A DNA stretch of 64,000 nucleotides from a virus (IMGVR_UViG_3300013121_000049:80253-144252); one strand, 5' to 3'; positions 7,268 to 41,833 are shown, numbered from the stretch's first letter. The notes: generated by a model not told the origin, from the sequence alone. Program-made: numbers and translations.

Positions 7268-7331
7268 AGTGAAATCTCTCGGGAATGCGTAAATCTTAGC
7301 ACAGCCGTTCGTTCAATTTATCCGCAGGGTT

Positions 7332-7340: not shown

Positions 7341-7370
7341 GACTATGACCTCAACACAGCGGAGTAAAGC

Positions 7371-16823: not shown

Positions 16824-19800
16824 TCAATTCGCGTTGGTGCGGGTGGTGATGAACGCCTTCCACGACATATCGCCGAGAACGCCGGTGCTGCCGACCGTGA
16901 TACGCAGGAGACCGTCGCTCTGGGACGCATCGATGGCGACCGATGTAGTCGCTCCGACAGGCATGCCATCCCACTCTTCAGCAATCAGGGTCTCCCCTAC
17001 CGCCATGAAGGTGGGTCCATAGCAGCGGGTCCGCAGGATGGATTCCCGGTAGTAAAACACGCCGGAAGCACAACCTTCGATGACGATGTGGTGAGACGCT
17101 TGAGTACTGTTCCTCGGGGAACCAACCGGAGTCGGACTAGTAGCGATCGTATTGTATTGACCGATCACCCCGGTGCCGTCCAGCGTCAGCGCCTTCGTGC
17201 TGTTCAGGGTGGTGTTGGCCGTCAATACGACTTCCTGGTGCAACGCACTGTTGGACCTCGACAGCAAATACCACGTAGTCCCCTTGAGTCCAATCTCGCA
17301 GAGATCCCCCGGCAGCAGCTGAAGGGAAGCGCATGCGCTGTCCACGGAGTTCCCCAGCTGAGCGGAAAACGTCGCCCATATAGGCGCTACCGCCCGGAAT
17401 ACGATGCGCTTTCCTTCGCGCGCAAAAGGCAGCACGTAGGTCTGCGACATCCCGGAGAGCGTCGACGTGGTCAGGTTGACCAGATCCGCCCCAGCAGGGA
17501 CGGTCAACGTGCCCGATAGCGCCGTAGCCGTCAGGGTCACCGTACTGGAATTAGGCCGAATCTCCTTGACGCCGGTATATACCCGGATGACGCCGGAAGC
17601 ATCCAGGTTGTAGGCTTGGGCGTCTACCGCCCAGTCAACTCTCCACGAAGCGCCTGCGGGAATCCTCCCCAGAGGCAGGCTCTGTGCAATGCCGGGGCCA
17701 TAGGTATCCCCGGTATCTTCGTTGACCAGGACAACGTGGTAGTTCGGCCCATTGAATATGCTGAATGCAAAACTGACATCGACGGCGGACTGGTTTTCCA
17801 CCATCACCACGCCAGCTGCTGTAGAGACATTATCAAAGACCAGGGACGTCCCGATAACGCTCCCCGTAAACGCGGGGTCCAGAACAACCGTGATTGCTCG
17901 CGTACGATCCGCATAGATCGGAGCAGACACGTTTCCGGGGTTGCCGGTAAACACCCAACGAGGAGATCCGGTATCGGATTCTCCCTCCAGCTTGGTGCAG
18001 ACCCACCCAGGAGGGACGTTACTGGTTTCAAGGCCGGTTCTGAGCCGACTGAACTCGTTCCCTGTGCCGACCCAGCGCAACCCTCCGCCGTACGCAGCAT
18101 ACGCCTGCGTCCCTGCGCTTTGCGTCGTAATCACCATGTTGTCGAACGGCACCACCTGCGTCCAGGCAAGGCCGTCTTGCAGCACGAGGTTCCCCGGGGT
18201 ATACCCCGCGAAAGCGCCGGTCGGTGAATTACCCACAAGAAAGCCATCGGCTCCGCCCAGGCCGGTAAACGGCACGTCGTTCACAATATGTACGTACAAA
18301 ACCCCGGGGCTGCGGCCAGTCTGTGTCAGCGCGCGCAGAGCCCTCTGCAGCAAATCCGGGATGCCGATCAGCGCGACATCGGTCTCCAGCGTAGTGATCC
18401 GGGTCTCATGGTCACCTGTCGTCGTCTGCAGCCCCGATACTTGGCCGTCCAGCGTCGTCAGGTGCGTATCCGTGGCCGAGATGTAGTTGGCCAAGTCGGT
18501 TTGCAGGGCGCCGATATCCGCCTGATACTGCGTCAACCTGACCAGAGAGCTTGCCTTGGGATAGACGAAGATCGTGGTCGCATCCATGAACTCGACAATG
18601 TCACCGGTCTCTGCCGCCACTCCGTTGTAGGATCCGCCGGGGAGAGCGTAGTACCGGTTTCCGACTTCCGCGCCAACAGGGGGGTACGGGTCGTGAGTCG
18701 TAACGGTGAGCCACGGAACAAAGTTTCCGGGGATGCCCTCCGTGATCGCCAGGGGATCGATCGAGTGCCGCAACGAAACCGTTGCGCCTATCTGAGGGTC
18801 TCCCGCTTGAATCGAGGAGTAGGTCCCTTCCACGAAGGCGCAGATCGTGGTGATATCCGCCGGGAGGACAAACGGAGTAAGACCGCCGATCCACCCCTGG
18901 TCAACGCCATTAACGAGGAACCCTACCTTCCCGGTAGCGCCCTCGAAGTAGACAACTACCCGGCAGTCCACCGGGAAAGTCAGCGGAATTGCCTGGGATA
19001 CCAGGGTGTCTGTCCCCCCGGGATGCTCGTACTGGCTGGATACGGAGCCGATAATGCCGGACGGACTATTGGCTACCTGGATGAATACGGAGAATCCCTT
19101 GGTCATCGCGGCATTCCGGGCAAATATGCCGGAGAACGCTATAACCTGTCCGGACCCGAGCAGCGCGGCTGTCATATCGGAAGACACGTCCAGCAAGATC
19201 GCAGTGACATTAGGGCCCGTAGGCAAGGGGAGGTCGCCCACGCTGCCCGTATTAGTAAGCACCTGGAATCCGTTTGCCGTCGCCGCCGCATAGGCAAAGA
19301 AGGGGGGGTTCCCTTCAAAAAGGCTGAAGGAGTGAACGCTGTCGTCTCCGGATACCGTGGGGAACGGAGCAGCGCCAATGAACTCCGCCACCCCATCCAT
19401 GACGGGGTACTGGAGAATGTCTTGTTGCTGGGTGACCGGCGACATATCCCAGCCGCCTTTGATCGGCAGGTCGAGGTTGGCCCTGGCCGCCAGCGGCTGC
19501 ACTGCAATCCACTGCCCTCCCGAGTAGATCAGCATATCCTTCTCAGCGCCGGTAATGGCGCCGATATCGACCAGACTTTGCGGAACGTCCAGGACTCCGG
19601 ACCAATGAACCTGGGCGGCGAGGCCTGCCCGGTACTCTTGATAGCCGGAGGCGTCGCCGAGATGCGTATCGTCGATCACCCGGTACATGATCTGGATGTC
19701 GTCTTGCATCACGGTGTCGCCGTTTTGCACTTGCGCCGTGGTCAGAGCAAACCGGGCAGCCTCGTCGGCCACATGCACCAGACGCTCCAGCGCCGCTGCC

Positions 19801-20114
19801 GGGATAACCGACAACGGCAGCATGCCCGTGGTGATGTTCGATGCGTTGGTCGTGTCGACATTCTGGACGTTACCCAAGCCGACGTCCGCGTTGGTCAGGA
19901 CAACGATGCCGACTTTGCCGTTAACGCTCAGCACGCTGCTCGGCGGAAAGTAGCCCAGAGTAGTCCCATAACCTACTCCGGTAGCTACCACCGGGCGACC
20001 CGCTCCTCCCTGCCACGTCGAAAATGCGTCCGTGGAGAACAGCTTGGTGCCGATGTTGCCGTTGACGAAGTTGATGAACGGCTGGATGTCTTCCAAGTAA
20101 ATGGGCGTCGGCAT
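16824..20114 (-). CDS. large tail protein (1096 aa), likely a fibre, tailspike or baseplate component
   Basis: Gly/Thr-rich ORF with a coiled-coil-like segment (TTLDGQVSGLQTTTGDHETRITTLETDVAL). It shares a TAATG stop/start overlap with the upstream gene. Confidence 0.7.
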   Translation of the reverse strand: MPTPIYLEDIQPFINFVNGNIGTKLFSTDAFSTWQGGAGRPVVATGVGYGTTLGYFPPSSVLSVNGKVGIVVLTNADVGLGNVQNVDTTNASNITTGMLPLSVIPAAALERLVHVADEAARFALTTAQVQNGDTVMQDDIQIMYRVIDDTHLGDASGYQEYRAGLAAQVHWSGVLDVPQSLVDIGAITGAEKDMLIYSGGQWIAVQPLAARANLDLPIKGGWDMSPVTQQQDILQYPVMDGVAEFIGAAPFPTVSGDDSVHSFSLFEGNPPFFAYAAATANGFQVLTNTGSVGDLPLPTGPNVTAILLDVSSDMTAALLGSGQVIAFSGIFARNAAMTKGFSVFIQVANSPSGIIGSVSSQYEHPGGTDTLVSQAIPLTFPVDCRVVVYFEGATGKVGFLVNGVDQGWIGGLTPFVLPADITTICAFVEGTYSSIQAGDPQIGATVSLRHSIDPLAITEGIPGNFVPWLTVTTHDPYPPVGAEVGNRYYALPGGSYNGVAAETGDIVEFMDATTIFVYPKASSLVRLTQYQADIGALQTDLANYISATDTHLTTLDGQVSGLQTTTGDHETRITTLETDVALIGIPDLLQRALRALTQTGRSPGVLYVHIVNDVPFTGLGGADGFLVGNSPTGAFAGYTPGNLVLQDGLAWTQVVPFDNMVITTQSAGTQAYAAYGGGLRWVGTGNEFSRLRTGLETSNVPPGWVCTKLEGESDTGSPRWVFTGNPGNVSAPIYADRTRAITVVLDPAFTGSVIGTSLVFDNVSTAAGVVMVENQSAVDVSFAFSIFNGPNYHVVLVNEDTGDTYGPGIAQSLPLGRIPAGASWRVDWAVDAQAYNLDASGVIRVYTGVKEIRPNSSTVTLTATALSGTLTVPAGADLVNLTTSTLSGMSQTYVLPFAREGKRIVFRAVAPIWATFSAQLGNSVDSACASLQLLPGDLCEIGLKGTTWYLLSRSNSALHQEVVLTANTTLNSTKALTLDGTGVIGQYNTIATSPTPVGSPRNSTQASHHIVIEGCASGVFYYRESILRTRCYGPTFMAVGETLIAEEWDGMPVGATTSVAIDASQSDGLLRITVGSTGVLGDMSWKAFITTRTNAN

Positions 20115-22975
20115 TACGGGGTCTCCTCGATCTCAAAGGTCACCAGATGCGCGGGGTCGTTGTTCCCCAGCACGTTGGCCTGATCGTTGTTGTAGACCAG
20201 GTTGCCCGTCGGGTTAGCAACGCCGGACGGCCCGGTAATCGTATAGGTGAACGGACCCGACAGCGGGTCATTCCCAGTGGCCCCGGTGTACGTCACGTTG
20301 AACGTGCCCGCGGCTCCCTTCGACAAATTGGTTGCCTTCAGCTTAGCCGTATTGACGACCGGCGTACCGATGATGGCTTCTCTGGATTGCACGGGGAACG
20401 ACACCGGGCGCCGCACGAAACCGCCAACCGTGTAGTTGGCCCCGCCGGAAATCGTCGTCACCACGATACCCGCCGGGTTACGCACCGACAGGTTGCTGAA
20501 TGCCGTGACGCCCTTCGGATCGGTGTCGAATACCTTGAGGACCCGTGATGGCGTAAACCCGGTCGTCCATGCACCCTGCCAGGAGCCGATCCCCGCATCG
20601 AGAGAGTCTACGGTCAGCAGTTGCGGAGTCGGATTGACGTCATGCAGGGAGACCGTATAGCCCGGGGCGCCGCTGTATCCCGTCGCCGGCGACAGCGGGC
20701 CGGACTGCAGCCGGGCCGGACTGCCGGAGATGCTGACCGCCACGACCGGCGTGATGCTGGCGACAAAGACGGTAGTCGTAAACACGCCGGACGTCGCATT
20801 GGTCGCCTTCGTCAGGGTCACCCGGATGTTGTTGTTCGGCGTCGTCAAGTTGTATTCCTGGACACCTGCGCCAACCGTTACGTCCACTTGGCTGGATGTA
20901 GCATTGGCCAGCACCAGATCTCCGGTCGGGTTGGCTATCGCTACTGCCGTGTAATTGGCCGGCGTAAACGCCACGGTTACCGCAGGGTCTCCTTCCTTGA
21001 TGGCGGTCTGACCGATCGGATAAACAATGGCGGCAAACGCATTCGTCGGACGAACGTCATCCAGGGAGACGATGTTGGCCGTAGTGAACCACGCAGACCA
21101 AGCCCCCGCCGGGGACTTCACTCGAACCTTGATGTACTTGCTGACCGGCAATCCCCCCGGCTGACTGCGCGCCGCCGCCGTCAGGGTTTGCACAAAGCCA
21201 ATGGTTGCCGGGAAGTTGTTGGACGCCGCCAGGTGCGCACTGCCGGCTTCATCGGCAAACTCGATGGCCGTAAAAGGGGAGTCCGCCGTAACGGTGACGC
21301 CGAATGTCTGCCCCGCCGCGTAATCGACCTGCCCCAGCTGCAGGTTCGGACTACTGACTACAGCAGACAGGACAACCGGAGGCGTTTCGTACTGAAGGCT
21401 GACGGAATGCCGGGGGCCTTCTCCGTGGGTAACCGAAAGAGTTGTCGCCCCCAGGGTATCGACGTCCACATACCCCGTCCACGTATCGGTGCTGCCTACC
21501 CGGGTCAAAGGAACCGGCGTGCTCAGGCCGAGAGTCACCGTCGGCTTAAAGTGCAGCATTCCGGTTGTCGCCAGCACAGTCACCCGGACCAGATGTGTCG
21601 AAGAAAGTCCGCTGACGAACACATTGCCGTCATCCGACGTCACCTTGTTGCCGACGTTATCTGACGGGTTCGTTGCCGAGATATCGGAGATCGCCACGAA
21701 GCCATGGGAGATGTTGGTGGTCAACGTCGTGTTGTCTCCCAGGGTCGCCGTCAGATTGGAATCGGTCGGGCTGTACTGCAGGGAGGTAATTGCAGGCGGG
21801 ACAGTGATCTGTGTCGACAGAACATCGCCGCTGGACAAAGTCAGCGTCAGGGTCTGCGTCTGGCCATCGTAATCCAGGCCAGATACTCCAGGGGGAAGGG
21901 CCACGCTGGCTTGCGTCCCGTCACCCATTTCCACGACGAGCTCGCCGGTCTGATCGCTGTAGCTAAGGCTGGCGATGTTGGTCGGCACATCCGTCTGGAG
22001 AAACGTGCCGTCTCGCATGGAGATCGTCAGGACGTGATCGGTGGGGTTGAACTCCAGGCCGATCACCGGATTCAGGTCGTGGTCGTGCTCCGGCGGCAGA
22101 CGGCTGATCCACAGGTCCTGCAGGTTGTTCTCGAAGCGCACCCGATCCCCCTTCAGGGTGCGATATCCACGGTACATACCCGGATGGGTGACCAGGTACT
22201 GCTTGCCGTCGGCGGCATCCACAGGAGGCGTAGCATCCCCGGACGTCTGCATGGGGCTGTGGCCGCCGATAGTGGCGGCCGCCGTGAAGGCCAGGGATCC
22301 CGCTTGGAAAGCGACGTGCGACGTGGCGAAGGTCATGTAGCAAAGGCCATACAGGGTCGCCGGCTGCGGAAGGCCCAGGAGGCCCATCGGCCCAGCCTGC
22401 AAAATGGGCTCGGACCCCTTCTGCACGACCAGGTTCATGTTCTGGAAGTCGATGCCGATGAAGATGTGGTCGCCGGCCACCGCGGGGGACTGCCAGTTCC
22501 CAGAAACAGGCGCCTGCACCACGCCGGCGATCACGGGAAACGCTTGAAAACCTGACGCCGAAACCTGCAGCCAATTGCCGAAAATGGGGTCCGGAGAGGC
22601 GCTCTCGATCATCAGGGCTTCGAACATCTCCGGCGTCGTATTCTCATCGAGGAACGCCGCGCCATAGCTGACTACATTGTCCCCGGGCTGAATTGCGGGG
22701 ACCACCAGCGGACCCATCCACCGGGTACCCGAGAATGCCGTGGCGGGGATGCCGTTTCCAGTGAACGCGGCGGACATGTTGCCGGAGTCCGGAATAACCG
22801 CGTCAGGGACCAGGGCCGACCCGTTCCATGTTCCGTGAAGGGCCCCGACGATAGCGGCGTTCGCCAGGGCGGACGTCATGTTCCAGGTGCCGGCCAGCGG
22901 CCAGACCGTTGGCGGGTGCTCCAGCGCCGGGTTCTGGAAGAGGAGGTGCGGAAAATCTACGCTGAGGCGACCCAT
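20114..22975 (-). CDS. tail protein (953 aa) with three tandem repeats of about 29 aa
   Basis: Repeat units are IASLSYSDQTGELVVEMGDGTQASVALP, VSGLDYDGQTQTLTLTLSSGDVLSTQITVP and ITSLQYSPTDSNLTATLGDNTTLTTNISHG. A GAGGA ribosome-binding site precedes the start. Confidence 0.7.
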   Translation of the reverse strand: MGRLSVDFPHLLFQNPALEHPPTVWPLAGTWNMTSALANAAIVGALHGTWNGSALVPDAVIPDSGNMSAAFTGNGIPATAFSGTRWMGPLVVPAIQPGDNVVSYGAAFLDENTTPEMFEALMIESASPDPIFGNWLQVSASGFQAFPVIAGVVQAPVSGNWQSPAVAGDHIFIGIDFQNMNLVVQKGSEPILQAGPMGLLGLPQPATLYGLCYMTFATSHVAFQAGSLAFTAAATIGGHSPMQTSGDATPPVDAADGKQYLVTHPGMYRGYRTLKGDRVRFENNLQDLWISRLPPEHDHDLNPVIGLEFNPTDHVLTISMRDGTFLQTDVPTNIASLSYSDQTGELVVEMGDGTQASVALPPGVSGLDYDGQTQTLTLTLSSGDVLSTQITVPPAITSLQYSPTDSNLTATLGDNTTLTTNISHGFVAISDISATNPSDNVGNKVTSDDGNVFVSGLSSTHLVRVTVLATTGMLHFKPTVTLGLSTPVPLTRVGSTDTWTGYVDVDTLGATTLSVTHGEGPRHSVSLQYETPPVVLSAVVSSPNLQLGQVDYAAGQTFGVTVTADSPFTAIEFADEAGSAHLAASNNFPATIGFVQTLTAAARSQPGGLPVSKYIKVRVKSPAGAWSAWFTTANIVSLDDVRPTNAFAAIVYPIGQTAIKEGDPAVTVAFTPANYTAVAIANPTGDLVLANATSSQVDVTVGAGVQEYNLTTPNNNIRVTLTKATNATSGVFTTTVFVASITPVVAVSISGSPARLQSGPLSPATGYSGAPGYTVSLHDVNPTPQLLTVDSLDAGIGSWQGAWTTGFTPSRVLKVFDTDPKGVTAFSNLSVRNPAGIVVTTISGGANYTVGGFVRRPVSFPVQSREAIIGTPVVNTAKLKATNLSKGAAGTFNVTYTGATGNDPLSGPFTYTITGPSGVANPTGNLVYNNDQANVLGNNDPAHLVTFEIEETP

Positions 22976-26135: not shown

Positions 26136-29100
26136 TTACCCGAGAGGTCGGACCCCATTGCTGACATCCGCCGGCGCGCTCATGCCCGCCTGGCTCTGGT
26201 ACTCGAAGGTCGTCTTCGAAAGGAAGTCCTCGACGCCCTGCGGGTAGAACTCGCTGGGCGGCAGGATGTACGGCGCGCTCTTCGGGTCGCCCTCGGCGTG
26301 GTTGTGGCTGACCGACTCGCCCGAAGCCTGCTTGTGGTGACTGCCGATGACGACCTCCTGGTTCTCGTGGACCTTGCCGGCCTTGAGCGCCGCCACGGCT
26401 TCCGCCTCTGTGGCGAAGTGCACGGTCTTCTGCGTCTCGTCCTTGCTGGTCAGATGTACGCTGCCCAGGATGGCCTCGTGGCCGGGCGCAAACATCGAGT
26501 AGCCGTAGCCCTTGCGCACGTCGTTGATGTGGTGCATTGGCAGCAGCTTGGCCTTGGCCTCGGCGATGGCTTCCGGCGTCATCGGCAAGTGCATGGTCAT
26601 GGCGTCGCCGTCGAAGTCCGCGCCGAACGCCGGCAAGTGCAGCGGATTCAGGCCGATCGTGTTTTCCTTGGTCGGCACCGGATAGATGGCCAGCTCGTTA
26701 GTCCGCAGCAGGGTCGGCGCGCGGTTCAGCAGCAGCGGGATGTCCTTGATGCAGCGGTTGAACGCATAGGTCGCCAGGTTGTCGCGCTTGGTGTAGGAAT
26801 CCAACGCCTCGGGCATCGACATGCCCTGCTTCGCCAGGAAACGCAGGATGTGGTACTTGTAGAGCACCCACAGCTGGTCCACCGGGATGCGGGCCTCGTT
26901 GAAGCCGACATCCGGGGCAGCATAGATCGTCGCCCGTCCCGAGAAGTTCTGCTTGCGCGCCAGCAACCGGTCATGAAACACCCCGGTCTTCGGCCCGCCT
27001 TCCCCGGCGATCTGCTTGATGAACCCCTTCAGCGGCTTCTTGGCGCCGATGTTGTCGCCCAAACCCATGATGGCCGCTGCGCCCTGATAGAGGTCCTTGC
27101 GCATGGGCACCAGGGCATCCGGCGTCGAATCCGCGAGGTTCTTCTTCAGGGTCTTGCTGACCAAGATGTGATCGTTGTACAGGTTGTTGACGTCCGCGAA
27201 GTGCAGACTGCCGCCGCCCTGATCCATGAAGGGGCGCATGACCGGGGGCAGCACGGGCATGTGCTTGATGACGTAGGCGTCCGCCGGGTTGGAGAATCCG
27301 CTCTTCTGCAGGCCGCGCAGGTACTTGGCGCGCTTCACCTCGTCATCTCGCGCCGATACCGACTTCAGGTTGACGGCGTTGTGCACGGAGGTCTTCAGCG
27401 CCTCGTCGACATCGATGTTGGCCAGCAACTCCTTGAACGCCTCGCCGCCCACCTTGATCTTGTCGTCGTTGTAGGCTTCGTCGGCGTCCGCCTTCTTGGT
27501 CATGCCGACACCGGTCTTGCCGATGTGAATATCCCGGACCTTGGACTGGTTCAGCGTGTCGTAGAGGCCGTAGTGTCCCGGCGCAATCTTCTGCACGCCG
27601 TAAGAGCCGTCAGTCAGCCGATCGAACTCGTCCGCGCTCAGCTTGAGCACCGACTTCACGGGCATCTCGAAGGTAGGGTTCACGATGGGCTCGGCCAACG
27701 TGTAGTGCGACCACTTGGTGCCCTCCGGGCCGCCGGTAATGATGGGGTCGAACATGCCGCCTTTCTCAGGCTGCAGGGTGCGCGCCAACAGGCGGCCCTC
27801 GTTGACCTCGCCGCCGCTCATCTCCAGGATCTTGTGGTCGGTCAGCGGGGCCAGCGTCACTTTGTCGTTGGCCGTGCGCACATCGATGCCGGCGCCCTTC
27901 AGGTAGCCCAAGAACTTGTCGGTGGCAAAGGTCGTCTTCGGCTTGGGAAGCGGCTCGCCATTCTGGAAGGCCTTCCAGAACTCCTCGTTCTTCTCGGCCT
28001 TGATGGTCGACATCTCCTGCAGGTTCTTGCGGGCGTTGGACCCCAGCAAGGCCAGGAATTCCATGTAGGCCGTCCGCTTGGATCCCTCTTCCCCGCCCTT
28101 GGACGGCTGGCGCCAGGAGTCATAGCCACCCTCGACGTTGCGGGCGCTGTAATTGGAGTCCGTGGTCTTGTAGGTCTTGACCACGTAATGCGGGCCGCCG
28201 AAGACCTTGGGCAACACCTTGCCGGAGACCGGATCCACCAGCACGTCATGCTGCTTGAGCCCGTGCGCCTTCAGCTCGTCCTTGATCTTGCGGACAGAGT
28301 CCCCGGCGTTCTCATAGTTGTGGACCACATACTGCTTGCCCGTCTTCTGGGCAATGCGACCGGCCGCCGTCTCCAGGACCGATCCCAGGTTGATCCGGGA
28401 GGTGACCGAAGCCGGGTTGAAGATGGCGTCGACGGGTTTCCCCGTCTCCTGGTTATAGGGCATCTGCTCGTCCGGGACGATCTTGGAGACCACGCCCTTG
28501 TTGCCATGAAAGCCGGTCAGCTTGTCGCCTACCTCCAGGTGCTTCACCGAGCGCGTCAGGATGCGAACCTCCTTGCCATCGGTGTGGGCCTCGATGACCT
28601 CGCCGGGCTCCTCGTGCGTCCAGTACTCCACGACTGCCAGGTACGGGGAAACCAGCTGCTTGCTGATGCGGTGGTACATCAGGTCGGTCGTGCTCATCGT
28701 GCGCGGCTTGAGCACCGCCCAGATGGGATCGCCGTAGCGCAGGGTCTGGCCTTTCTGGATGAAGCCGCGACTGTCCAGCTTGGCCAGCTGGTCGGACTTC
28801 AGCAGGGACGGGAACGTCTTGCGGAACAGCGCCCGATCGGTCTTCATGTCCGTCGTCAGGGACAGGTCGTACTTGTAGGCGTGGTGGCTGGACAGCTTCT
28901 CGGCCGCGCCTTGGCTGACCACGATGCCGTCTTCATGGTTGAAGCCGTGGTACGGCATGAAAGCCACGTTCAGGTTGCGGCCCAGCGCCAGTTCCCCGCC
29001 GCGCGTGTAGTTGCTGTCGTACAGGGACTGCCCCTTCTCGACGCGATCGCCCACCTTGACCAGCGGGGCCTCATCATCGCGGAACCCCTTCTGGTTGTAT

Positions 29101-30905
29101 GGCAGGTTGACCACGCGGGCGACCTTGGCCGTCTTCCCGTCATCCCCGCGGATCTCCATCCCGGTGTCGGTGATCTTGCTCACCGTGCCGCTCACCGGGC
29201 TGATCGTGGTCATGATCTTCCCATAGACCTTGGTGAACGGGACCTCCCTGCCGTTCCGGTCACGGGTGGCCGTGGTTACCAGCGGCGCCTCGCGGTCCTT
29301 CAGGGAGAGCGCCTGGACGATGGCCTTGCCCGCCATGGTCAGACGACCCGGATGGTCGGCGTTCATGAACGGCACCAGGTTGGTGGTGACCGTGTACATG
29401 TCCGTCGGCTTCTCCACCCAGTACTGGACCTTGGACTCCGGGACGTTCTTCAGGACGCCGTGATCCTGGGCCTGCACCAAGCCGTTCTTCTTGCCGATCG
29501 TGAACCCGATGCAAGCGTTCATGATCTGGGACGCCGACAGGTAGACCGAGCGCCCCTTGGTGTCCTTGAACCGGCCGTAAAGGTTGCCCTTGGCGTCGCG
29601 CGCCGAGTTGATGGCAAAGCGCAAGTCGACGCCCACCGTGTCGGCTTCCGGCGTCCGGCTGGGATCCAGGATGGTCAGGTGGGACGGGTCAATGTTGCGC
29701 GTCCGGACGTTGTTGGCTTTCTGCAGATCGATGCCGCCTTCCCCCTCGCCCAGAACGGTGACCTTGGCCACGTTCTCCAGGGACTCGATGGGGTTGGTTT
29801 CCGACGGCACGATCGACAGCGTGGACTTGGTCAGGAAGTTCTGCATGACCTTGTTGTAGGGCTTGGAGACCACGACCTTGCGGATCTTCGGCGTCTCCTT
29901 GGACAAGACGGCGCGGTCCAGCCCCCACTTGATCTTGCGGCTGGCGTCGCTGACGTTCTCGTGTTCGCGGCCCTGTTCAAACCGCCGGGCAATCAGGTCC
30001 GGGTAGCTCACGACCCGCTTGAACTGCAGGGAGTCGCGGTTGTCTTCCTCGCGCTCGCCCTTGTGGATGGCGATGATGTTGGCGGCGATACGCAGCAGGG
30101 CATCGCCATCCAGATGCCCAAAGGACTTGCCCAGGGTGACCTTGGTGCCGTCTTCATCCAGGGTACGCTTCTCCAGCCCGACCTTGATCCACTTGATCTT
30201 CTCGGCTTGCGCGGGGTCCGGGTTGGCCTTGCGCTGCTCGTACGGAGCCACCTTGCGATACAGGCGGTTGGCGATGCCGTCGCTATCCCCGGACTCCATC
30301 AGATCCTTGTCCCAGATGGCCGTGGGAATGTAGGCGGACGCTTTCTGCCGGTCGATGCCGAAGACGTGGCTGAGCACCCAGACCAGCGGCACGTTGATGT
30401 CGCCGCTGCTCAGGATCAACGTCTGCTTGCGCGGGTCCAGGGACACTTCCAGGGAGCCGCCGCCGGAGTTGATCTGGGCCATGACAGCGCCGTTGCTGCG
30501 CCGACGATGGTAGACGCCCTCCTTGAGCTGCAGGAGGTGGGAGATGACGTAGTTGTTGCCCTTGTAGACGACCGTGTGCTTGTCCGTCAGGTGAAAGCAG
30601 TCGGCCAGGGCGTAGTTCTTCTCTTCGTCGACCGTCTTCCCCGTCTGCTTGTCGATGATGCGCAGGGTGCCGCGCACCGGGAACGTCAGGGACTTCGATT
30701 CCAGGATCGCCTTCTTTTCGTCTTCCTTGTCGAACGTCTTGCGATCGATCGTGATGTCCGAGACCTCGATACGGTAGCGGGCGTTCTCGATGGGGAACTG
30801 CTTGCGCACGCCATCCACGATGGCCTGGCAAACATCGTTCAGCGTGCTGTCCGGAGACGAGATCATGTGCTTCAGCGGCTTGCCGTCGAGACTGGTCAGG
30901 CTCAT
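26136..30905 (-). CDS. DNA-directed RNA polymerase: a complete beta-like subunit fused to the N-terminal half of beta-prime (through the NADFDGD catalytic region), 1589 aa
   Basis: Beta-subunit blocks: [12 protein letters not shown] (compare GYNFEDSILVSE), [25 protein letters not shown] (compare [25 protein letters not shown]), and LGEGEGGID...TPEADTVGV. Beta-prime blocks: [16 protein letters not shown] and [25 protein letters not shown]. The start is at the ATG that forms an ATGA overlap with the upstream stop; a GTG at 30914 is an alternative. Confidence 0.92.
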   Translation of the reverse strand: [1589 protein letters not shown]

Positions 30906-31330
30906 AGTTGCCACCCCTCACCCGGTTCCTCGTCTTTCTTCGGCGTCTCGAAGACCACGCCCTCGTAGGGCGCATCCTTCGGCTCCAGATACGTCAGGAC
31001 GACGATCATCTCGCCCTCCTTGTTGAAGGATTCCTTGCGGTCCACCAGGTAGATCCGCGTGGTCTCCGAGTGGATACAGGCGTCCAGCAGGCTCTCCAGC
31101 ATCAGTTCCTGCTCGGCAAACCCGGACAGCAGGAACCGCTTGACCCGGAGCTTGTAGTCGGCCAGTTTGAACCCGGCCCGGCCGGGAGCCTTGTCCTTTA
31201 CCGCGGCTTCCTCGTCAAGGTTGCGCAGGGTGACCCCCGGCATGGCTGCCGAATAGTCCTGCAGACCGACTCCCGCGTTCTCCGGAAGGTTGGGGGCATT
31301 GACCCCCGGCGTCTTGTCACGCGGCGGCAT
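30902..31330 (-). CDS. hypothetical acidic protein (142 aa), translationally coupled to the RNA polymerase gene
   Basis: ORF 30902..31381, trimmed to the Met after the GGAGGA ribosome-binding site. Its stop overlaps the RNA polymerase start. Confidence 0.5.
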   Translation of the reverse strand: MPPRDKTPGVNAPNLPENAGVGLQDYSAAMPGVTLRNLDEEAAVKDKAPGRAGFKLADYKLRVKRFLLSGFAEQELMLESLLDACIHSETTRIYLVDRKESFNKEGEMIVVLTYLEPKDAPYEGVVFETPKKDEEPGEGWQL

Positions 31331-33071
31331 TGGCCTGTCCTCCATCGGCTTGAGCGTTCGGATCTCCCGGGTTGCCCGCATCCTGCGCCGGAGCCGGCTG
31401 CAGGGCGGAGACGTCCGGGCGTGCTGTCGTCATCAGGGCGTGCAGGAGGGCGGCCACCGGCATGTCCTCGTACTGCAGGCGCATGATGGCGGTCTGCTGA
31501 TCCTGCGGCGCGTAGGACTGCAGCTGGACGAACAGGTCATACGCCTTGCGCTTGGCCTCCTCGTAGCGTTCGTCGCGGTTGCGGGAATCCTTCTCCGCCA
31601 CGGCCGCCTTGTAGACCGCCTTGAGCTGGACGTCCTGGATGCGGATGGCCGTCTCGGCGCGCATCTCCGCCGCCCGGATCTGACGCTCTTGCTCCTCGCG
31701 GAAGTCGAGGCCGATGGATTCCAGCAGGGTGATGTCGGAGACCTGCCCGTTCTGCGCCAGCGTCGGCAGGAACTGCTTGAGCATCTCGTCGTCGGTCAGC
31801 TCGAATGGCGTCATCTTCACCGGCACCCGGGCAATCCCCAGGAAGGCCGAGATCTTGTTGAAGACCCAGTCGATCAGACCGTCGATGCTACGGACGTAGT
31901 TCTCCATGCTGTTCTTGAGCATGCGCAGGCCGATCGTGGAAGACGTCCAGTTCGTCGTACCGGCCATCATTTCCCGGGAAACACCCAGCGACATCAGGAG
32001 CTGCTCTTCGGACAGCTGCAGCTCCTGGGCCACGAGAAGGTTCTTGCCGTCGCCGCCGATCGTACTGATGCCCACCGGGACCGGTGCGATCACCTGATGG
32101 TTGGGGTCATGCTTGAACCGCTTGATATTTTCTTTCATGTTGTCCACGAAGCCTGCCAGCGACATCGACATCACGGGATCGCTGTTCGAGCTCTGCGGCT
32201 GCGGGAAGATCACGCGCAGCGGTGTCATGTGCTCGGATGCAATGGCTTCGTTGGCCCGGCGCATCATGGCCTGGTGGAAGATCAGCTGGTAGACCGCCAT
32301 GATCGGCGGAATGCAAACGCCGTCGTCGAGCTTGCCGATGCTCATGTTCATCAGGTGGTAGATGCTGTTCGGGTCGAACTTGAACGACTTCTTGAGACCA
32401 ATGGCCTCCAGCATGCCCATGGGAAGCGTCGACAGGTACATGGTGTCGCCCATCAGCACCTTGCGCTTGATGAACGGCGGGATCTGGTAGTAGTACTCCG
32501 ACTCGCCGGTGACCGGGTTGTGGTTCACCGTCATGTAGTTCGGGTCCCAGCTGATCAGGTTGATGCGACCCTCGTCCCGGACGTACTTGTCGGTGACTTC
32601 GTAGACCCCGGTATACCCGCAGCCCCGGGCCGGGCAGCCGCCGGTGAACTTGCCGTTGCGGAAGCGGATCTTCGCAATACTGCGGACGTTGTGAACGGTC
32701 TTGCAGGACGGGCATACCGCCGTGCGAACGAAGGGCAGGTAGACGGAGACGAAGGAGTTGCCTCTGGTGTAGTACTCCAGACCGAAGTTGTTCAGCTTAT
32801 GCTTGAGCTGGATGGCCTTGCACAGCCGCTTGTAGCGATCCGCCAGGTCCTGGGAATCCGTATCCGGGATGAAGTCGGTGATCGGGTAGGTTGCGTGCTT
32901 GCGCAGGACCTCCATTGCCGTCGGGGATTGCGTGACGATGAAGTCAGCCCACCGCAGCAACTCCTTGAAGTTGCGTGGCAGGAACTGGTTGCTCAGCGTG
33001 AAGAAAGGGTTGGGCTGGTACCCCCGGTTGAAGTCTCCGTACAAACCGGCGCCACTCATCGGGTCTATCAT
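31317..33071 (-). CDS. Zn-ribbon-containing protein (584 aa), function unknown; candidate RNA polymerase accessory or virion protein
   Basis: Zn-ribbon pattern CPSCKTVHNV...CPARGCGYTG. The C-terminus is a helical, charged region. It sits in an operon with the RNA polymerase and overlaps it. Confidence 0.65.
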   Translation of the reverse strand: MIDPMSGAGLYGDFNRGYQPNPFFTLSNQFLPRNFKELLRWADFIVTQSPTAMEVLRKHATYPITDFIPDTDSQDLADRYKRLCKAIQLKHKLNNFGLEYYTRGNSFVSVYLPFVRTAVCPSCKTVHNVRSIAKIRFRNGKFTGGCPARGCGYTGVYEVTDKYVRDEGRINLISWDPNYMTVNHNPVTGESEYYYQIPPFIKRKVLMGDTMYLSTLPMGMLEAIGLKKSFKFDPNSIYHLMNMSIGKLDDGVCIPPIMAVYQLIFHQAMMRRANEAIASEHMTPLRVIFPQPQSSNSDPVMSMSLAGFVDNMKENIKRFKHDPNHQVIAPVPVGISTIGGDGKNLLVAQELQLSEEQLLMSLGVSREMMAGTTNWTSSTIGLRMLKNSMENYVRSIDGLIDWVFNKISAFLGIARVPVKMTPFELTDDEMLKQFLPTLAQNGQVSDITLLESIGLDFREEQERQIRAAEMRAETAIRIQDVQLKAVYKAAVAEKDSRNRDERYEEAKRKAYDLFVQLQSYAPQDQQTAIMRLQYEDMPVAALLHALMTTARPDVSALQPAPAQDAGNPGDPNAQADGGQANAAA

Positions 33072-33120
33072 TCTGCTTTGCTCCGGGGAATCCAGTCTAT
33101 TTTACGACGAGGAGGTGGCC

Positions 33121-37178: not shown

Positions 37179-39101
37179 ATGCAAGTCCGCGCCCTCCCTG
37201 GGGGGCGCTACGCGGAGATTGTCGCGGAGTCCCCCCATACCGATTTACCCCTGCTGGACAGCTTTCTCGGCGGGCACAAACACCGTAGCCGGCCGTCCCG
37301 CCTGGTGAGCCGCGACAACCCGCTGGTCCTGAAGTCCGTCCTGCGCCGCCTGAAGCGGCACGTCAAGAACAAAGTCCGGATCCACCTGGACGCCGAAATC
37401 GCTCAGGACTACCTGGGAGAGCCCAAGCTCAAGCCGCTGCCCGCCGGGTTCCGCTACCACACGGCCCCGCTGGAGCACCAGGATATCGCCCTGCGTTACC
37501 TGTGGACGTATCCGCGATTCGGTCTGGGCCTGGACCCCGGTCTGGGAAAGACCAAGGTTGTCCTCGACTGGTTCGCCCTGCTGCAGGTCAAGAAGGCGCT
37601 GGTCATTTGCCCCAAGCCGCTGTTCTACGAATGGCTTCGCCAGGCCCCCCTGCACCGCCCCGACCTGAAGGTCCACGTCCTGTCTTCGGTCTCCTACCGG
37701 GATCTCATTGCAACCCGACAGGAGAAGCTGCAGAGCCCCGACCTGGACCGCGACACCCGTCGAAGGCTGGAGGCTGAACTGCGTACGCTGGAGCGTGAGC
37801 GCCAAGAGGAGAACGATCGGGTGCGGGACGCCCAGGTCATCGTGGCCAACTACGCCAAGCTCCTGCAGAACGAGACGTTCTTCACCAAGATGCCCTGGGA
37901 CGCCGTGGCCATCGACGAAGCCCTGGTCAAGAACCCCGACAGCGAACAGAGCCGCGTCATCCAGGCCATCTCCGACAAGGGCATGCCGATCACGCTGATG
38001 TCGGGCACCCTGATCAACAACGACGCCGGTGACTGCTTCTCGCCGATCCGCATCCTCGACCGATCTATCCTGGGTTCCAGCTTCTACGCCTTCAAGCAGC
38101 GGTACGCCGTCTATCGCCAGTTCGAAGACCCCGAGGGAAAGACCCGAAACCTGCTTGTCGGGTACAAGGATGTGGAGGAGATTCAGGACGCCCTGAATTC
38201 CGTCTTCCTGTTCATGCGCAAGGAGCAATGGCTCAAGGATTTGCCGCCCAAGATCTTCAAGGAGATCGAGGTCGAGCTGTCCGAGGACCAGAAGCGCGTC
38301 TACAAGCTGCTGAAGGAAAACTACGCCGCCCGGCTGCTCAACGACGAATGGGTGGAAGCGGATAACCCCATGGTGCTGGCCGGCAAGCTGGCCCAGATAT
38401 CGTCGGGGTTCATCTACTACGGCTCCCCGGAAGACGAGCTTCGCGACCTGGGGCTGGTCAGCCTGGCTACCTTGCTGCAAGGGAAAAAGGGCAAGGACGG
38501 CGCCAAATCCAAACGGGTCAAGAAGCCGCGCTTCACCTTCAAGTTTGCCGAGAATCCGAAAATCGATGCCGCCATGGCGTTACTAACCGGTGAACTGGCA
38601 AAGAAGAAGGTCGTGCTCTGGTACAACTTCGGCGCCGAGGAAGAAATGCTGGCGGCGGCCCTGCGGCAGCGCGGCATCACCTACCGCACGATCAACGGCG
38701 AGACCAAGGACTCCGGCAAGCTGATCGCCGAGTTCAACACCACGGAGAACGTGCAGGTCCTGATGTGCCAGGCCAAGGCGGTCAACTACGGCATCACGCT
38801 GCTCGGCCGCAACATCGACGACTGCGAGTACGAACCCGAGCTGAGTCCGGAAGTGTACACCCACGTTTTCTACAGCCTGAATTACAGCCTGGAAGTCTTC
38901 CTGCAGCAGCAGGACCGAAGCCACCGCATCGGTATGACTCACAGCCCTACCTATTACATCCTCAGAGGAAAGACCATGATCGAGCGTGCGATCTACCGCC
39001 GCCTGCTGGCCCGCATGGAGGTCCGCGAGGCCTTCGTCCGCGACACCCTGCGCCCGCCCCCTTCCAAGGAGCCGGTCATCGCCGGTCTGGGAGACGACTG
39101 A
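37179..39101 (+). CDS. SNF2-family (DEAD/DEAH-like) helicase
   Basis: Motif I LGLDPGLGKTKVVL. A DExx-type motif II (AIDEALVKN). A C-terminal helicase domain (VLWYNFGAEEEMLAAAL...QQQDRSHRIGM). Confidence 0.85.
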   Translation: MQVRALPGGRYAEIVAESPHTDLPLLDSFLGGHKHRSRPSRLVSRDNPLVLKSVLRRLKRHVKNKVRIHLDAEIAQDYLGEPKLKPLPAGFRYHTAPLEHQDIALRYLWTYPRFGLGLDPGLGKTKVVLDWFALLQVKKALVICPKPLFYEWLRQAPLHRPDLKVHVLSSVSYRDLIATRQEKLQSPDLDRDTRRRLEAELRTLERERQEENDRVRDAQVIVANYAKLLQNETFFTKMPWDAVAIDEALVKNPDSEQSRVIQAISDKGMPITLMSGTLINNDAGDCFSPIRILDRSILGSSFYAFKQRYAVYRQFEDPEGKTRNLLVGYKDVEEIQDALNSVFLFMRKEQWLKDLPPKIFKEIEVELSEDQKRVYKLLKENYAARLLNDEWVEADNPMVLAGKLAQISSGFIYYGSPEDELRDLGLVSLATLLQGKKGKDGAKSKRVKKPRFTFKFAENPKIDAAMALLTGELAKKKVVLWYNFGAEEEMLAAALRQRGITYRTINGETKDSGKLIAEFNTTENVQVLMCQAKAVNYGITLLGRNIDDCEYEPELSPEVYTHVFYSLNYSLEVFLQQQDRSHRIGMTHSPTYYILRGKTMIERAIYRRLLARMEVREAFVRDTLRPPPSKEPVIAGLGDD

Positions 39102-39103
39102 CC

Positions 39104-41291: not shown

Positions 41292-41812
41292 AAGCTAGAC
41301 ACCGAACTTTACCCCAGGCGGGGTACGGCGTGTCATGGCAAGGCCGGGCTCGGCACGGTCCGGCGGGGCTTGCAGAGGTTTGGCGAGGTGCGGCGTGGCA
41401 AGGACTTCTCACTGGGCTCGGCGAGTTCAGTGAGAAGTCCTTGAGGAAGGGTTTGGCTTGATCTGGTCAGGTTGGGCTGGGCGGGGTGTTGCTTGGAAAG
41501 GCAAGCCTGGGCTCGGCGAGGCAAGGCTAGGAGAGGCAAGGCGAGCCGGGGAATGGCAAAGCTTGGCAAGGCGTGGCAAGGCCCGGCATGGCGGGGCTCG
41601 GATAGGCACGGCATGGCTGGGTTAGGTACGGATTGGCATGGCGAGGGTTTCTCGCTGGGCTCGACGAGTTCAGCGAGAAACCCTTGGTGACTAGCACTAA
41701 TGATTATCTTCAATGGCGAGGTTCGGTCAGGTTTGGACAGGACGGGCTGGGTAAGGTAAGGCATGGCAAGGGCTTCGCCCGGAGCGGGAAACCACTCCGG
41801 GTTTTTCTTTTT
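41292..41812 (+). ncRNA. candidate structured non-coding RNA or long leader: GGCAAGGC/GGGCTCGGC-type short repeats, two covarying hairpins, and a 3' intrinsic terminator
   Basis: Hairpin 1, 41403-41439: GACTTCTCACTG-ggctcggcgagtt-CAGTGAGAAGTC. Hairpin 2, 41645-41683: GGGTTTCTCGCTG-ggctcgacgagtt-CAGCGAGAAACCC. The loops are near-identical and the stems differ but stay complementary. The terminator CCCGGAG...CTCCGGG plus TTTTTCTTTTT lies at 41778-41812. Confidence 0.4.
41778..41812 (+). terminator. intrinsic terminator or attenuator immediately upstream of the ribosome-binding site for gene 41834
   Basis: A 7 bp stem (CCCGGAG / CTCCGGG) followed by a T-tract. Confidence 0.6.
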
Positions 41813-41833
41813 CACACACAAAAGGAGGTCAGC

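Follow-up and report, generated by a model that had tools for sequence, protein, structure and literature searches.

Introduction

Multisubunit RNA polymerases (RNAPs) of phage are known almost only as the phiKZ/AR9 type, which is very divergent, fragmented and sigma-less, and in which one enzyme is packaged and injected. Among cellular enzymes, natural fusions of rpoB to rpoC are found in Helicobacter and Wolbachia, and beta::beta-prime tethers have been engineered in E. coli; in all of these the beta C-terminus is joined directly to the beta-prime N-terminus. Such cellular fusions are chains of about 2800-2900 aa that include the whole of beta-prime, and they continue to rely on alpha2 and omega. 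A different rearrangement is seen in cyanobacteria and plastids, where beta-prime is divided between rpoC1 (gamma) and rpoC2 (beta-prime). The multimeric-RNAP-encoding Caudovirales (mReC) are uncultured tailed phages whose RNAP, like the one described here, can be aligned with cellular beta and beta-prime (Weinheimer and Aylward, 2020; PMC7481178). In the part of its table covered here, the genes for beta (about 920-1560 aa) and beta-prime (about 900-1370 aa) are separate and mostly adjacent, and the paper mentions neither a fusion nor a split in those phages. Finally, the paper on Salmonella phage Arash names beta and beta-prime genes and does not describe their fusion or split (PMC10585845).

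Here we analyse a stretch of 64,000 nucleotides from a 144-kb viral genome (hereafter, the window), in which beta and the N-terminal half of beta-prime form one chain and the rest of beta-prime forms another. The layout is the mark of a big phage lineage that has hardly been described so far.

Results

One gene encodes all of beta and half of beta-prime

The fused gene (Table 1) lies in an open frame spanning 26136..30914(-). Translation probably begins at the ATG at 30905; this codon is provided with a GAGG-type Shine-Dalgarno sequence and overlaps the TGA of the upstream ORF as ATGA, and the database copy of the protein is likewise 1589 aa long. The beta part is single and uninterrupted (aa 1 to ~1017, nt ~27855..30905). 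Beta-prime region A extends from aa 1022 (TDHKILEM, nt 27842) across the catalytic double-psi beta-barrel, such that the beta-prime portion amounts to residues ~10-620 in E. coli numbering. The chain is made up of all of beta, a short linker, and beta-prime to the end of the active-site double-psi barrel region. Pfam placed Rpb2_6 (7.4e-52) and Rpb2_3 of beta, followed by Rpb1_1 and Rpb1_2 of beta-prime, on this one chain, and phmmer against the PDB matched aa ~60-1017 to bacterial beta (1.8e-59) and aa ~1120-1535 to beta-prime (~1e-41). An AF2 model of aa 901-1592 matched bacterial beta-prime and cyanobacterial gamma chains in Foldseek (E~1e-26). In the Pfam and PDB alignments beta has its conserved N-terminal lobes as well as the double-psi barrel with the lysine (Rpb2 domain 6), the alignment to bacterial beta-prime runs through the clamp-helix region (E. 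coli residues 167-567), and D1430, D1432 and D1434 of the catalytic loop are invariant across the family alignment (A3). The original prediction, made from sequence alone, had proposed a bacterial-type RNAP with a whole beta fused to the N-terminal half of beta-prime. Its coordinates were exactly right, and the beta and beta-prime motifs that it had assigned were matched in profile and structure searches against RpoB and RpoC, the best matches being bacterial RNAPs (E 1e-59 and 6e-45) and not phiKZ/AR9. An antisense 1556-aa ORF at 26298..30968(+) was rejected as a shadow of the sense frame; its composition is not protein-like and its likeness to Arash merely mirrors the sense frame.

The rest of beta-prime is indeed encoded by a separate gene, across a gap of 18,869 bp, and this 607-aa second chain contributes the funnel, bridge helix, trigger loop and second zinc site. 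The N-terminal Cys4 zinc-binding domain of beta-prime is absent from the fused chain, where the segment is cut down to GGPEGTKW. The whole protein has only four Cys (aa 26, 103, 465 and 1385), with none in aa 466-1384, and across the family the segment is likewise shortened and the consensus lacks Cys at this position. The domain has thus been deleted, and the enzyme, at about 1017 + 572 + 607 aa, is near minimal in size.

Table 1. Features of the RNAP genes and their surroundings in the window.
Feature	Coordinates	Strand	Evidence or remark
654-aa protein, orthologue of Arash virion protein Gp218	3475..5439	-	4 nt downstream of beta-prime C
Beta-prime C-half, 607 aa	5444..7267	-	Pfam Rpb1_5 2e-16; PDB bacterial beta-prime C-halves 6e-45
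Trigger loop (…SSKHQGG)	6278..6340	-	sequence motif in beta-prime C
Second zinc site, Cys228/280/287/290	6392..6592	-	HNCGT … CEAHEGICQMCYG; sole four Cys of the 607-aa chain
Bridge helix region, from GARGNP	6824..6841	-	sequence motif in beta-prime C
Divergent intergenic region upstream of the beta-prime C gene	7268..7370	.	CTAAGAT class B variant towards beta-prime C
Virion protein	12788..14575	-	
Fibre-like protein	14910..16814	-	
Minor-tail/virion protein	16824..20114	-	
Tail sheath	20114..22975	-	1.4e-79
Fused RNAP gene	26136..30905	-	1589 aa; whole beta joined to beta-prime N-half
C-terminal tail, aa ~1523-1589	26139..26339	-	non-conserved, predicted disordered, past conserved split site; pLDDT < 35
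Catalytic Mg-binding loop ADFDGD (beta-prime NADFDGD equivalent)	26604..26621	-	sequence; GADFDGD = aa 1428-1434
Position of the beta-prime N-terminal zinc-binding domain	27687..27770	-	shrunk to PEKGGMFDPIITGGPEGTKWSHYTLAEP, cysteine-free
Small conserved ORF, 142 aa	30902..31330	-	between portal-like and RNAP genes; TGA overlaps RNAP ATG (ATGA)
Portal-like gene	31317..33071	-	41.8% identity to Arash Gp204, annotated portal (E 8e-163); weak PHROG portal match 7.5e-5
GTAAAATAG, late-type (-10-only) promoter-like motif, class B	33097..33105	-	3' end 25 nt upstream of portal ATG
SNF2-family helicase, Arash Gp198c orthologue	37179..39101	+	Pfam SNF2-rel_dom 1.6e-18; PHROG 5e-82
ResIII/Helicase_C_2 helicase, Arash Gp197c orthologue	38765..40675	+	Pfam Helicase_C_2 3.9e-23, ResIII 2.8e-8; true start likely close to 39100
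Sigma70-family factor, 302 aa, regions 2 to 4, Arash Gp196 orthologue	43124..44032	-	PDB RpoS 7f0r_F 1.6e-18, aa 16-298; PHROG sigma 4.8e-24

The split site is shared, and the fusion defines a lineage

Beta-prime is cut at the same permissive site as in cyanobacteria, plastids and phiKZ-like phages, and the site is not new. On the fused chain, aa 1151-1518 align to residues 184-552 of the 624 of cyanobacterial gamma, extrapolation of this alignment puts the end of the chain near the gamma C-terminus, and Foldseek covers about 580-597 of the 611-617 residues of gamma. The second chain aligns to beta-prime from aa ~3-24; its aa 24 is paired with residues 5-12 in both cyanobacterial beta-prime and plastid beta-double-prime, and it begins 12-19 aa ahead of the cyanobacterial beta-prime start. 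The split in phiKZ beta-prime coincides with the cyanobacterial one (review PMC7598289), and the window's split maps to both. Most two-piece relatives stop at the equivalent of aa ~1521-1526, plus 0-10 residues, and the beta-prime C chain is 606-608 aa long at five loci. At one relative's locus (L007) an in-frame continuation across the split resembles read-through; this was rejected, and the locus is a true split, because two different stop codons stand there ahead of a fresh ATG.

A single chain held both beta-prime region A and the C-terminus of beta in all 150 of the best 150 representatives at 50% identity. Beta-prime C was also on that chain in 81 of these and not in 65, while four ended after about 110 aa of beta-prime. 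The family thus includes one-piece forms (~2000-2900 aa, often with inteins; P0149, P0150 and P0167 are examples), the two-piece form of the window and a three-piece form. The fused architecture of ~1500-1600 aa is found in at least 54 clusters at 90% identity, at least 839 clusters span the junction, and relatives occur on at least 574 IMG/VR contigs, with contigs of up to 198 kb. With the one-piece and three-piece forms included, the conserved feature of this large lineage is the fusion rather than the split; the beta::beta-prime tether is ancestral and the splitting of beta-prime a later, variable event. Inteins and homing-endonuclease inserts are frequent among the relatives.

No near relative was found by megablast of 20 kb against 50,697 phage records, exact matching of the window's two RNAP proteins in the contig index gave no hit, and we found no description of a phage RNAP composed of beta::beta-prime-N and beta-prime C in the open-access literature. 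Among cultured phages Arash is the closest relative; its Gp206 and Gp216 (OQ632216) are orthologues with 49% and 52% identity and the same two-piece layout, and Vibrio phages D69, D148 and D181 carry unannotated orthologues (46% identity for the fused gene). Both genes are labelled 'beta subunit' in the Arash record and 'hypothetical protein' in the Vibrio records. The distance between them is 4.8 kb in Arash, about 640 bp in D181 and 19 kb in the window, where the tail module lies between; D181 and D148 have a homing-endonuclease insert within the beta part. Each record of Arash and the Vibrio phages has RNAP at a single place, and no second copy was found in the window or the complete Arash genome. 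The window displays the traits of an Arash-like fused-RNAP lineage, namely the beta::beta-prime junction within a single chain, the gene order portal - small ORF - RNAP, a sigma factor and SNF2 helicase nearby, and GGTATAAR on the opposite strand. We consider its RNAP to be real, a fresh variant within the phage multisubunit RNAPs and probably of virion type.

Both RNAP genes lie in a structural context

As had been predicted, both genes lie amid structural genes of the minus strand, apart from the plus-strand replication genes (primase, PolA, nuclease). Phage Arash and the window are collinear. The portal-like gene heads the operon, and at every family locus fetched a gene of ~570-615 aa is followed by a small ORF and then by the RNAP gene. 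Arash and the Vibrio phages share this portal - small ORF - RNAP synteny with the window, together with the same sigma and SNF2/ResIII helicase neighbours. The small ORF has no Pfam or PHROG match and has positional homologues in Arash (Gp205) and at loci L002, L007, L008, L010 and L011. Through its overlap with the fused gene, the latter is translationally coupled to it, behind the portal gene and downstream of the conserved TAAAAT late-type motif. The SNF2 helicase stands beside the RNAP/sigma module across family loci. The Gp218 homologue directly follows beta-prime C in the window and follows a helicase in Arash and L008; it was considered as an extra subunit and rejected (AF2 model pLDDT 69, no significant PDB fold match), and only 12 homologues were found.

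The sigma gene of the window, whose orthology to Gp196 was assigned by tblastn, is syntenic with the RNAP module at L002, L008, L011, in Arash and in the window. Another sigma candidate, 41333..42250(-), was rejected for want of family matches, the real sigma being that in Table 1. Arash has two annotated sigma genes, Gp10 and Gp196, and the window yielded no sigma of the Gp10 (virion) type. Among 52 window ORFs none matched a Pfam family of alpha or omega, and tblastn with E. coli alpha and omega was negative for the window, for the complete genome of Arash and for three further loci; these searches are of low sensitivity and covered 64 kb of the 144-kb genome.

Two classes of promoter-like motif accompany these genes. 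Class A, GGTATAAR, has 10 sites in the window, all on the plus strand (0.7 expected), and 34 of 35 sites in Arash are on the early strand. The same strand bias is seen at L002, L007, L008, L009 and L011, and the motif is kept in phages with GC contents from 44% to 61%. The most conserved T of sigma70 -10 elements falls where class A has its final G or A. Class B is of late type; within the window alone its statistics are weak (4 found against 1.4 expected), and in Arash, L002, L007 and L008 the same nTAAAAT motif lies upstream of the beta-prime C gene and of genes in the portal region. The divergent region upstream of beta-prime C also holds CTTATGCC, a one-mismatch class A variant that faces the gene at 7371 on the plus strand. 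Scans for generic sigma70 promoters and for terminators gave no enrichment over shuffles. The ATGA coupling behind the portal-like gene, the conserved synteny and the family-wide TAAAAT motif point to late, structural-type regulation of the RNAP genes.

Discussion

The best explanation of these observations is that the two genes encode the catalytic core of a phage bacterial-type RNAP. Including the steps of packaging and sigma use that we infer for it, we give this reading a probability of about 0.6. The covalent beta::beta-prime tether would substitute for the alpha-dimer assembly platform, an alpha gene not having been found in the searches above. Both RNAP genes would be transcribed late, alongside the virion genes, from TAAAAT-type promoters, and the enzyme would be packaged in the capsid. 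Injected with the DNA, it would then begin transcribing the phage genome from the conserved GGTATAAG promoters on the opposite (early/replication) strand. Phage sigma70-family factors, one of which is encoded in the window, would set the choice of promoter, and the co-conserved SNF2 helicases are possibly RapA-like helpers. Where E. coli beta has D516, H526 and S531 in cluster I, the phage enzyme probably carries Ser, Asn and Thr, and rifampicin resistance is predicted for it.

The packaging step draws on virion mass spectrometry of Arash, in which Gp206 was the top protein (128 unique peptides, 3516 spectra) and Gp216 gave 40 unique peptides and 1210 spectra (PMC10585845). In the same data the adjacent helicase Gp217 (38 unique peptides/1148 spectra), Gp218 (36/1149, similar to beta-prime C) and sigma Gp10 (24/467) accompany the portal (32/877) and the major capsid protein, MCP (30/1333), while Gp196, the orthologue of the window's sigma, is absent from the virion list (PMC10585845). 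By analogy, the enzyme of the window is probably carried inside the particle. A real phage RNAP might nevertheless be unpackaged and serve intracellular middle/late transcription, with host RNAP, perhaps redirected by a phage sigma, making the early transcripts. What was detected in Arash would in that case be a very abundant late protein carried over into the preparation. The Arash authors themselves raise the possibility of carry-over, and their virions were prepared by sucrose gradient only and yielded 116 proteins, including obvious non-structural enzymes such as RNR, ligase and primase (PMC10585845). Moreover, GGTATAAG might be readable by host RNAP and its sigma70, because it resembles a generic extended -10 element. 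However, the replication enzymes gave only 2-3 unique peptides each, against 128 and 40 for RNAP subunits that stand at or above the portal and MCP (PMC10585845). The RNAP genes are also tied translationally and positionally to portal/virion genes at every locus examined, and class A ends in G or A instead of the T conserved for sigma70 and persists across the whole range of GC content. We hold an unpackaged polymerase to be unlikely, while giving it appreciable weight.

Less probable again is a phage core that is sigma-independent, as in phiKZ/AR9 with their non-sigma fifth subunit, with the phage sigmas reprogramming host RNAP. Phages without an RNAP of their own commonly encode sigma factors for the host core, and Gp218-like or other conserved uncharacterised proteins could be specificity subunits. 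Against this, Gp10 travels with the polymerase in Arash virions, the sigma gene keeps its synteny with the RNAP module at five loci, the enzyme aligns with bacterial beta-prime across the clamp-helix region, and the Gp218-like model has no sigma-like fold. Very little credence attaches to an artefact or decay, whether sequencing or assembly error, a pseudogene, or pieces rejoined by frameshifting or split-intein trans-splicing. The inteins and homing-endonuclease inserts of the relatives favour such a reading, but the fused length is equal in at least 54 independent clusters, the junction is present in every representative and the tail is disordered and non-conserved. GC3 (0.90 for the fused gene, 0.82 for beta-prime C) is typical of expressed genes in the window, and in Arash both proteins were seen at full length, peptides covering 89-100% of them. 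Nor could a frameshift, which the original prediction had named as a possible route back to a conventional layout, rejoin beta-prime C, because the pieces are 19 kb apart and their ends carry no intein motifs. That the window is cellular, a bacterial chromosome with a Helicobacter/Wolbachia-like rpoBC fusion, is scarcely credible at all. Natural rpoB-rpoC fusions do exist in some bacteria, but here the surrounding genes encode sheath, fibre, virion and portal-like proteins, and many ORFans and a replication module of phage type accompany them; the window is collinear with a phage, and the contig of a relative belongs to the viral genomes of IMG/VR. The window yielded no tRNA, and none of the 52 scanned ORFs, a set that leaves aside two small helicase-flanking ORFs at 36.1-36.8 kb, matched a ribosomal-protein family.

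Returning to the packaged, sigma-directed polymerase, a more ambitious and decidedly tentative extension, which we think somewhat improbable as a whole, is that a widespread lineage of ~145-200 kb tailed phages relies for all of its transcription on a single minimal tethered RNAP without alpha or omega. The enzyme would be packaged with a sigma70-family factor and an SNF2 helicase, injected, and switched between two promoter classes specific to the lineage, GGTATAAG early and TAAAAT late, by exchange of phage sigmas. If true, no earlier virion RNAP would have been shown to depend on sigma, and the enzyme would offer a test, set up by nature, of tethering as a replacement for the alpha platform. 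The lineage is of interest in any case. Its enzyme is clearly bacterial in sequence, yet of about 2200 aa, with the N-terminal zinc domain lost and alpha and omega undetected, and it offers fused large subunits in natural one-, two- and three-piece versions with their own sigma70-type factors. It bears on the minimal assembly requirement of a bacterial-type RNAP, on repeated splitting at the same beta-prime site (in cyanobacteria, plastids, phiKZ and this lineage), on the packaging and ejection of a ~240-kDa polymerase, and on the co-evolution of phage sigmas with conserved phage promoters. Experiments are feasible because cultured members exist (Arash and Vibrio phages D69, D148 and D181).

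How, then, does this enzyme compare with those already described? With phiKZ/AR9 it shares a phage two-barrel RNAP without recognisable alpha or omega and a beta-prime cut after the catalytic barrel. In other respects the layout is unlike that of phiKZ, as the original prediction maintained: beta is whole and fused, against two to three pieces in the phiKZ type; there is one RNAP set in the window and in Arash, against two (virion and non-virion) in phiKZ/AR9; and sigma70-family factors are encoded, whereas phiKZ-like phages have none. Its sequence also matches bacterial RNAP far better (Pfam 7e-52, PDB 1e-59) than it matches the PHROG phage 'RNA polymerase beta subunit' families (1e-31 to 1e-6). 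Membership of mReC is unsupported, since gene lengths and layout differ in the part of the mReC RNAP table covered here, and six metagenomes with contigs of the fused-RNAP family are absent from that table (PMC7481178). Cyanobacterial and plastid RNAP (rpoB, rpoC1 and rpoC2) divides beta-prime at the same position. Cyanobacteria, however, keep rpoB separate, possess alpha, omega and the zinc-binding domain, and have a C-half of 1318-1350 aa with a large insertion, against 607 aa here. From whole rpoBC fusions of the Helicobacter/Wolbachia type the window differs in that its chain stops after Rpb1 domains 1-2/3; the one-piece phage relatives (about 2000-2900 aa) are a nearer analogue of those cellular fusions than the window's own enzyme.

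Identity and anatomy of the two chains

RNA polymerase (RNAP) is encoded here in two minus-strand genes separated by 18.9 kb, the first of which fuses a whole β subunit to the N-terminal half of β′ while the second supplies the C-terminal half (the C-half). We place the probability of this identity and architecture at about 0.97, and the original prediction, which had set the fused gene at 26136-30905 with the C-half apart, is borne out there far above chance. Profile searches of both polypeptides, which that prediction had proposed as a check, matched the β and β′ families. In the fused chain the Pfam order is Rpb2_6 (7.4e-52) and Rpb2_3 from β followed by Rpb1_1 and Rpb1_2 (4.9e-13) from β′, and the top matches among PDB sequences are bacterial β (1.8e-59) and bacterial β′ (~1e-41); the C-half scores 2.2e-16 against Rpb1_5 and 6.1e-45 against bacterial β′, in its C-terminal half. 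The fused ORF spans 26136..30914 and probably starts at the ATG at 30905, which has GAGG ahead of it, shares an ATGA overlap with the TGA of the upstream ORF and gives the length of the database copy of the protein. The long ORF on the opposite strand was rejected as a shadow ORF, produced by a GC3 of 0.90 in the RNAP sense frame; the interval that it occupies also has a strong AT skew (-0.16 to -0.19).

Features of the window discussed in the text
Feature	Coordinates	Strand	Remarks
Fused β + β′ N-half gene	26136..30905	minus	1589 aa
β′ C-half gene	5444..7267	minus	607 aa
Orthologue of Arash virion protein Gp218	3475..5439	minus	654 aa; 4 nt after C-half gene
Portal-like gene	31317..33071	minus	41.8% identity to Arash Gp204; virion-protein gene ahead
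Sigma70-family factor	43124..44032	minus	RpoS-like 1.6e-18, regions 2-4
RyR-domain small protein	44279..44725	plus	Pfam 2.5e-11
3′-5′ exonuclease-containing gene (family A polymerase)	57098..58630	plus	
Polymerase gene (family A)	59474..61132	plus	
Fibre-like gene	14910..16814	minus	634 aa
Shadow ORF (rejected)	26298..30968	plus	1556 aa
GGTATAAR sites	7973, 22994, 25334, 35444, 40683, 41284, 44719, 46392, 52614, 63418	plus	
nTAAAAT sites	33105, 23540, 14620, 35430, 59455	minus	

β homology extends to about aa 1017 and β′ region A begins at aa 1022 (TDHKILEMSGGEV…PEKGGMFD), aligned to Thermus aquaticus β′ residues 14-51; read from these alignments, the two subunits are tethered directly, head-to-tail. 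The stretch corresponding to the bacterial Cys4 zinc-binding domain is shortened and free of cysteine, as it also is in the family consensus, and the whole chain holds four cysteines, none within aa 466 to 1384. The segment that carries the catalytic GADFDGD, residues 1140-1535, aligns with E. coli β′ 167-567; in many relatives across the family, DYDGD replaces DFDGD in the catalytic loop. Residues 1151-1518 align to 184-552 of the 624 residues of cyanobacterial γ (the β′ N-half), and by extrapolation the chain would end near the γ C-terminus. An AF2 model of aa 901-1592 has pLDDT 85-95 across most of the β′ core, matches bacterial β′ chains at E~1e-26 and spans about 580-597 residues of cyanobacterial γ (611-617 in all), with the final ~68 residues of the chain predicted to be disordered. 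The C-half, in which the bridge helix and trigger loop are recognisable, begins 12-19 residues ahead of the N-terminus of cyanobacterial β′ and plastid β″, and its only four cysteines all lie in the second zinc site. The β′ cut thus maps to the cyanobacterial site, which is also the position of the phiKZ-type split (PMC7598289), and we regard it as a recurrent permissive site since both groups are cut there too.

One-, two- and three-piece relatives

Fused proteins of ~1500-1600 aa made up at least 54 of the clusters (90% identity) recovered by a word-indexed search, and over 60 further clusters have proteins of ~1113-1165 aa; these align to aa 14 to ~1132 and so, judging by alignment, consist of β plus the first ~110 aa of β′. 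In this shorter group Rpb1_1 and Rpb1_2 lie on a separate gene of ~384-391 aa and Rpb1_5 on another of 608 aa; in one related locus (L007) the break at 13403-13423 reads TGA…TAA, after which a new ATG comes directly ahead of the VGGEAF motif. The second β′ cut of this sister clade, ~110 aa past the fusion junction, falls in a stretch aligned to Thermus β′ ~424-832, and on some JGI contigs carrying the related protein P0073 the gap at this cut holds three extra genes (279, 264 and 166 aa).

Used as the query of an exhaustive HMMER search, the junction region (aa 850-1301) matched 839 representative clusters at E ≤ 1e-30. Among the best 150 of these, the β C-terminus and β′ region A share one chain in all 150; the C-half is on the same chain too in 81 (one-piece forms of ~1700-4700 aa, median ~2300, in which LAGLIDADG inteins are common) and absent from it in 65, and the chain ends ~110 aa into β′ in four. 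In most two-piece representatives the chain stops no more than ~10 residues from the point that corresponds to aa 1521-1526. Relatives occur on at least 574 IMG/VR contigs, the longest being 198 kb. In a set of 50,697 phage records, cultured members are limited to Salmonella phage Arash, at 49% identity, and the Vibrio phages D69, D148 and D181, at 46%. The gap between the fused gene and the C-half gene is ~640 bp in D181 (C-half downstream), 4.8 kb in Arash and 19 kb in the window, and therefore 'fused, then split, then dispersed' is a fair reading.

The RNAP gene has been repeatedly invaded by mobile elements in relatives. LAGLIDADG inteins lie near the catalytic loop of many one- and two-piece forms (proteins P0150, P0153 and P0167; locus L010, 10001-18760, whose terminase is also intein-bearing), and a homing-endonuclease insert splits the β part in D181 (locus L093, 10516-11464) and D148.

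Gene neighbourhood and promoter-like motifs

Both RNAP genes sit among minus-strand structural and virion genes while the replication genes are on the plus strand, just as anticipated. The minus-strand order is virion protein, portal-like gene, small conserved ORF and fused RNAP gene, and that strand also carries sheath, minor-tail, fibre-like and other virion proteins; the plus strand encodes, besides small ORFs, a primase, a nuclease, a DHH phosphoesterase, a split PolA and helicases of the SNF2 and ResIII types. The window and Arash are collinear, and a tblastn comparison found no counterpart in Arash of the 7.3-26.1 kb tail block between the RNAP genes. In every family locus examined, a gene of ~570-615 aa at the portal position is followed by a small ORF and then by the RNAP gene; most of these loci, among them those whose RNAP gene is in one piece or otherwise differs, have a sigma factor and an SNF2 helicase nearby.

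Other features of the neighbourhood deserve mention. The RyR-domain gene adjoins the sigma gene, and the 72%-identical relative also has a RyR-domain gene in the corresponding position (L002, 1-49). The family A DNA polymerase seems to occupy two genes, separated by two minus-strand ORFs; in Arash the counterparts carry the annotations uracil DNA glycosylase and DNA polymerase fragments. The fibre-like gene, missed by GC3-based gene calling, shows a local GC dip (0.54 vs ~0.60), a composition which suggests a horizontally exchanged receptor-binding module.

The window has ten copies of GGTATAAR where 0.7 would be expected, a count that none of 100 shuffles reached, and all ten are on the plus strand. 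The sites lie 20-60 nt ahead of plus-strand gene starts, and a T-tract precedes most of them by 14-18 nt; the early strand has 34 of the 35 copies in Arash, and the strand bias is repeated in five metagenomic relatives. This motif probably serves the lineage as its early/middle promoter. A second motif, nTAAAAT, resembles T4 late promoters and is found 25-36 nt upstream of minus-strand structural-operon ATGs (portal, 23510, 14575, 59415 and 35430), with statistics that are weak within the window alone; it also precedes the portal-region and β′ C-half genes in Arash and the related loci L002, L007 and L008, and in relatives it often stands back-to-back with CTTATACC (GGTATAAR reverse-complemented). 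Because of gene order and this motif context, both RNAP genes appear likely to belong to the late/structural regulon.

Virion association, sigma and the covalent tether

LC-MS of sucrose-gradient Arash particles placed the fused chain Gp206 top of all proteins (128 unique peptides, 3516 spectra), with Gp216, the C-half (40, 1210), the adjacent helicase Gp217 (38, 1148), Gp218 (36, 1149) and a sigma factor, Gp10 (24, 467), detected together with portal (32, 877) and major capsid protein (30, 1333) (PMC10585845). Primase, ligase and UDG gave 2-3 unique peptides each, and the authors point out that abundant proteins may have been carried over into the preparation (PMC10585845). Gp196, the orthologue of the window's sigma factor, is absent from the virion list (PMC10585845), and a Gp10-type sigma was sought in the window and not found. 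By analogy with Arash, we lean towards the RNAP being packaged in virions of this phage as well. The spectral count of Gp218 nearly equals those of the β′ C-half and helicase; its fast-evolving counterpart in the window, with 12 homologues found and no recognisable fold in an AF2 model, may be associated with the RNAP or serve in ejection.

No α or ω family was matched in 52 window ORFs (Pfam), and E. coli α and ω probes (approximate sequences) had no match in the window, the complete Arash genome or three other loci. Engineered E. coli β::β′ fusions are functional. Given these and the family-wide fusion, we tentatively infer that the covalent tether may stand in for the α platform, a suggestion we consider somewhat doubtful. 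The odds that the phage core initiates in a sigma-dependent manner seem to us about even.

Comparison with known RNA polymerases

The enzyme would work like the bacterial RNAP core and probably like the phiKZ-type virion RNAP, and it fails the defining features of each known group compared. It differs from the bacterial core in having no zinc-binding domain and in that α and ω were not found. The expected departure from the phiKZ-like layout was borne out: compared with phiKZ and AR9, β is unsplit, one set is seen in the window and in the complete Arash genome, and a sigma factor is encoded. In contrast to cyanobacteria, there is no free-standing rpoB, and the C-half lacks the big insertion; unlike in the Helicobacter and Wolbachia fusions, β′ is not whole. 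The multimeric-RNAP-encoding Caudovirales (mReC; PMC7481178) have a different gene layout in the table entries compared, and six metagenomes with contigs of the fused-RNAP family are not in its RNAP table. Reviews up to 2026 (including PMC7598289) describe phage multisubunit RNAPs as devoid of sigma homologues and leave the β::β′ architecture unmentioned, and we found no description of a phage RNAP made of β::β′-N plus β′ C in the open-access literature; in the Arash paper the two genes are given just as β and β′ (PMC10585845), and the Vibrio phage records label both hypothetical. The gene products and their virion association had thus already been seen, and what is new, as far as the open-access literature can tell, is the architecture, its breadth, the association with sigma and the promoters.
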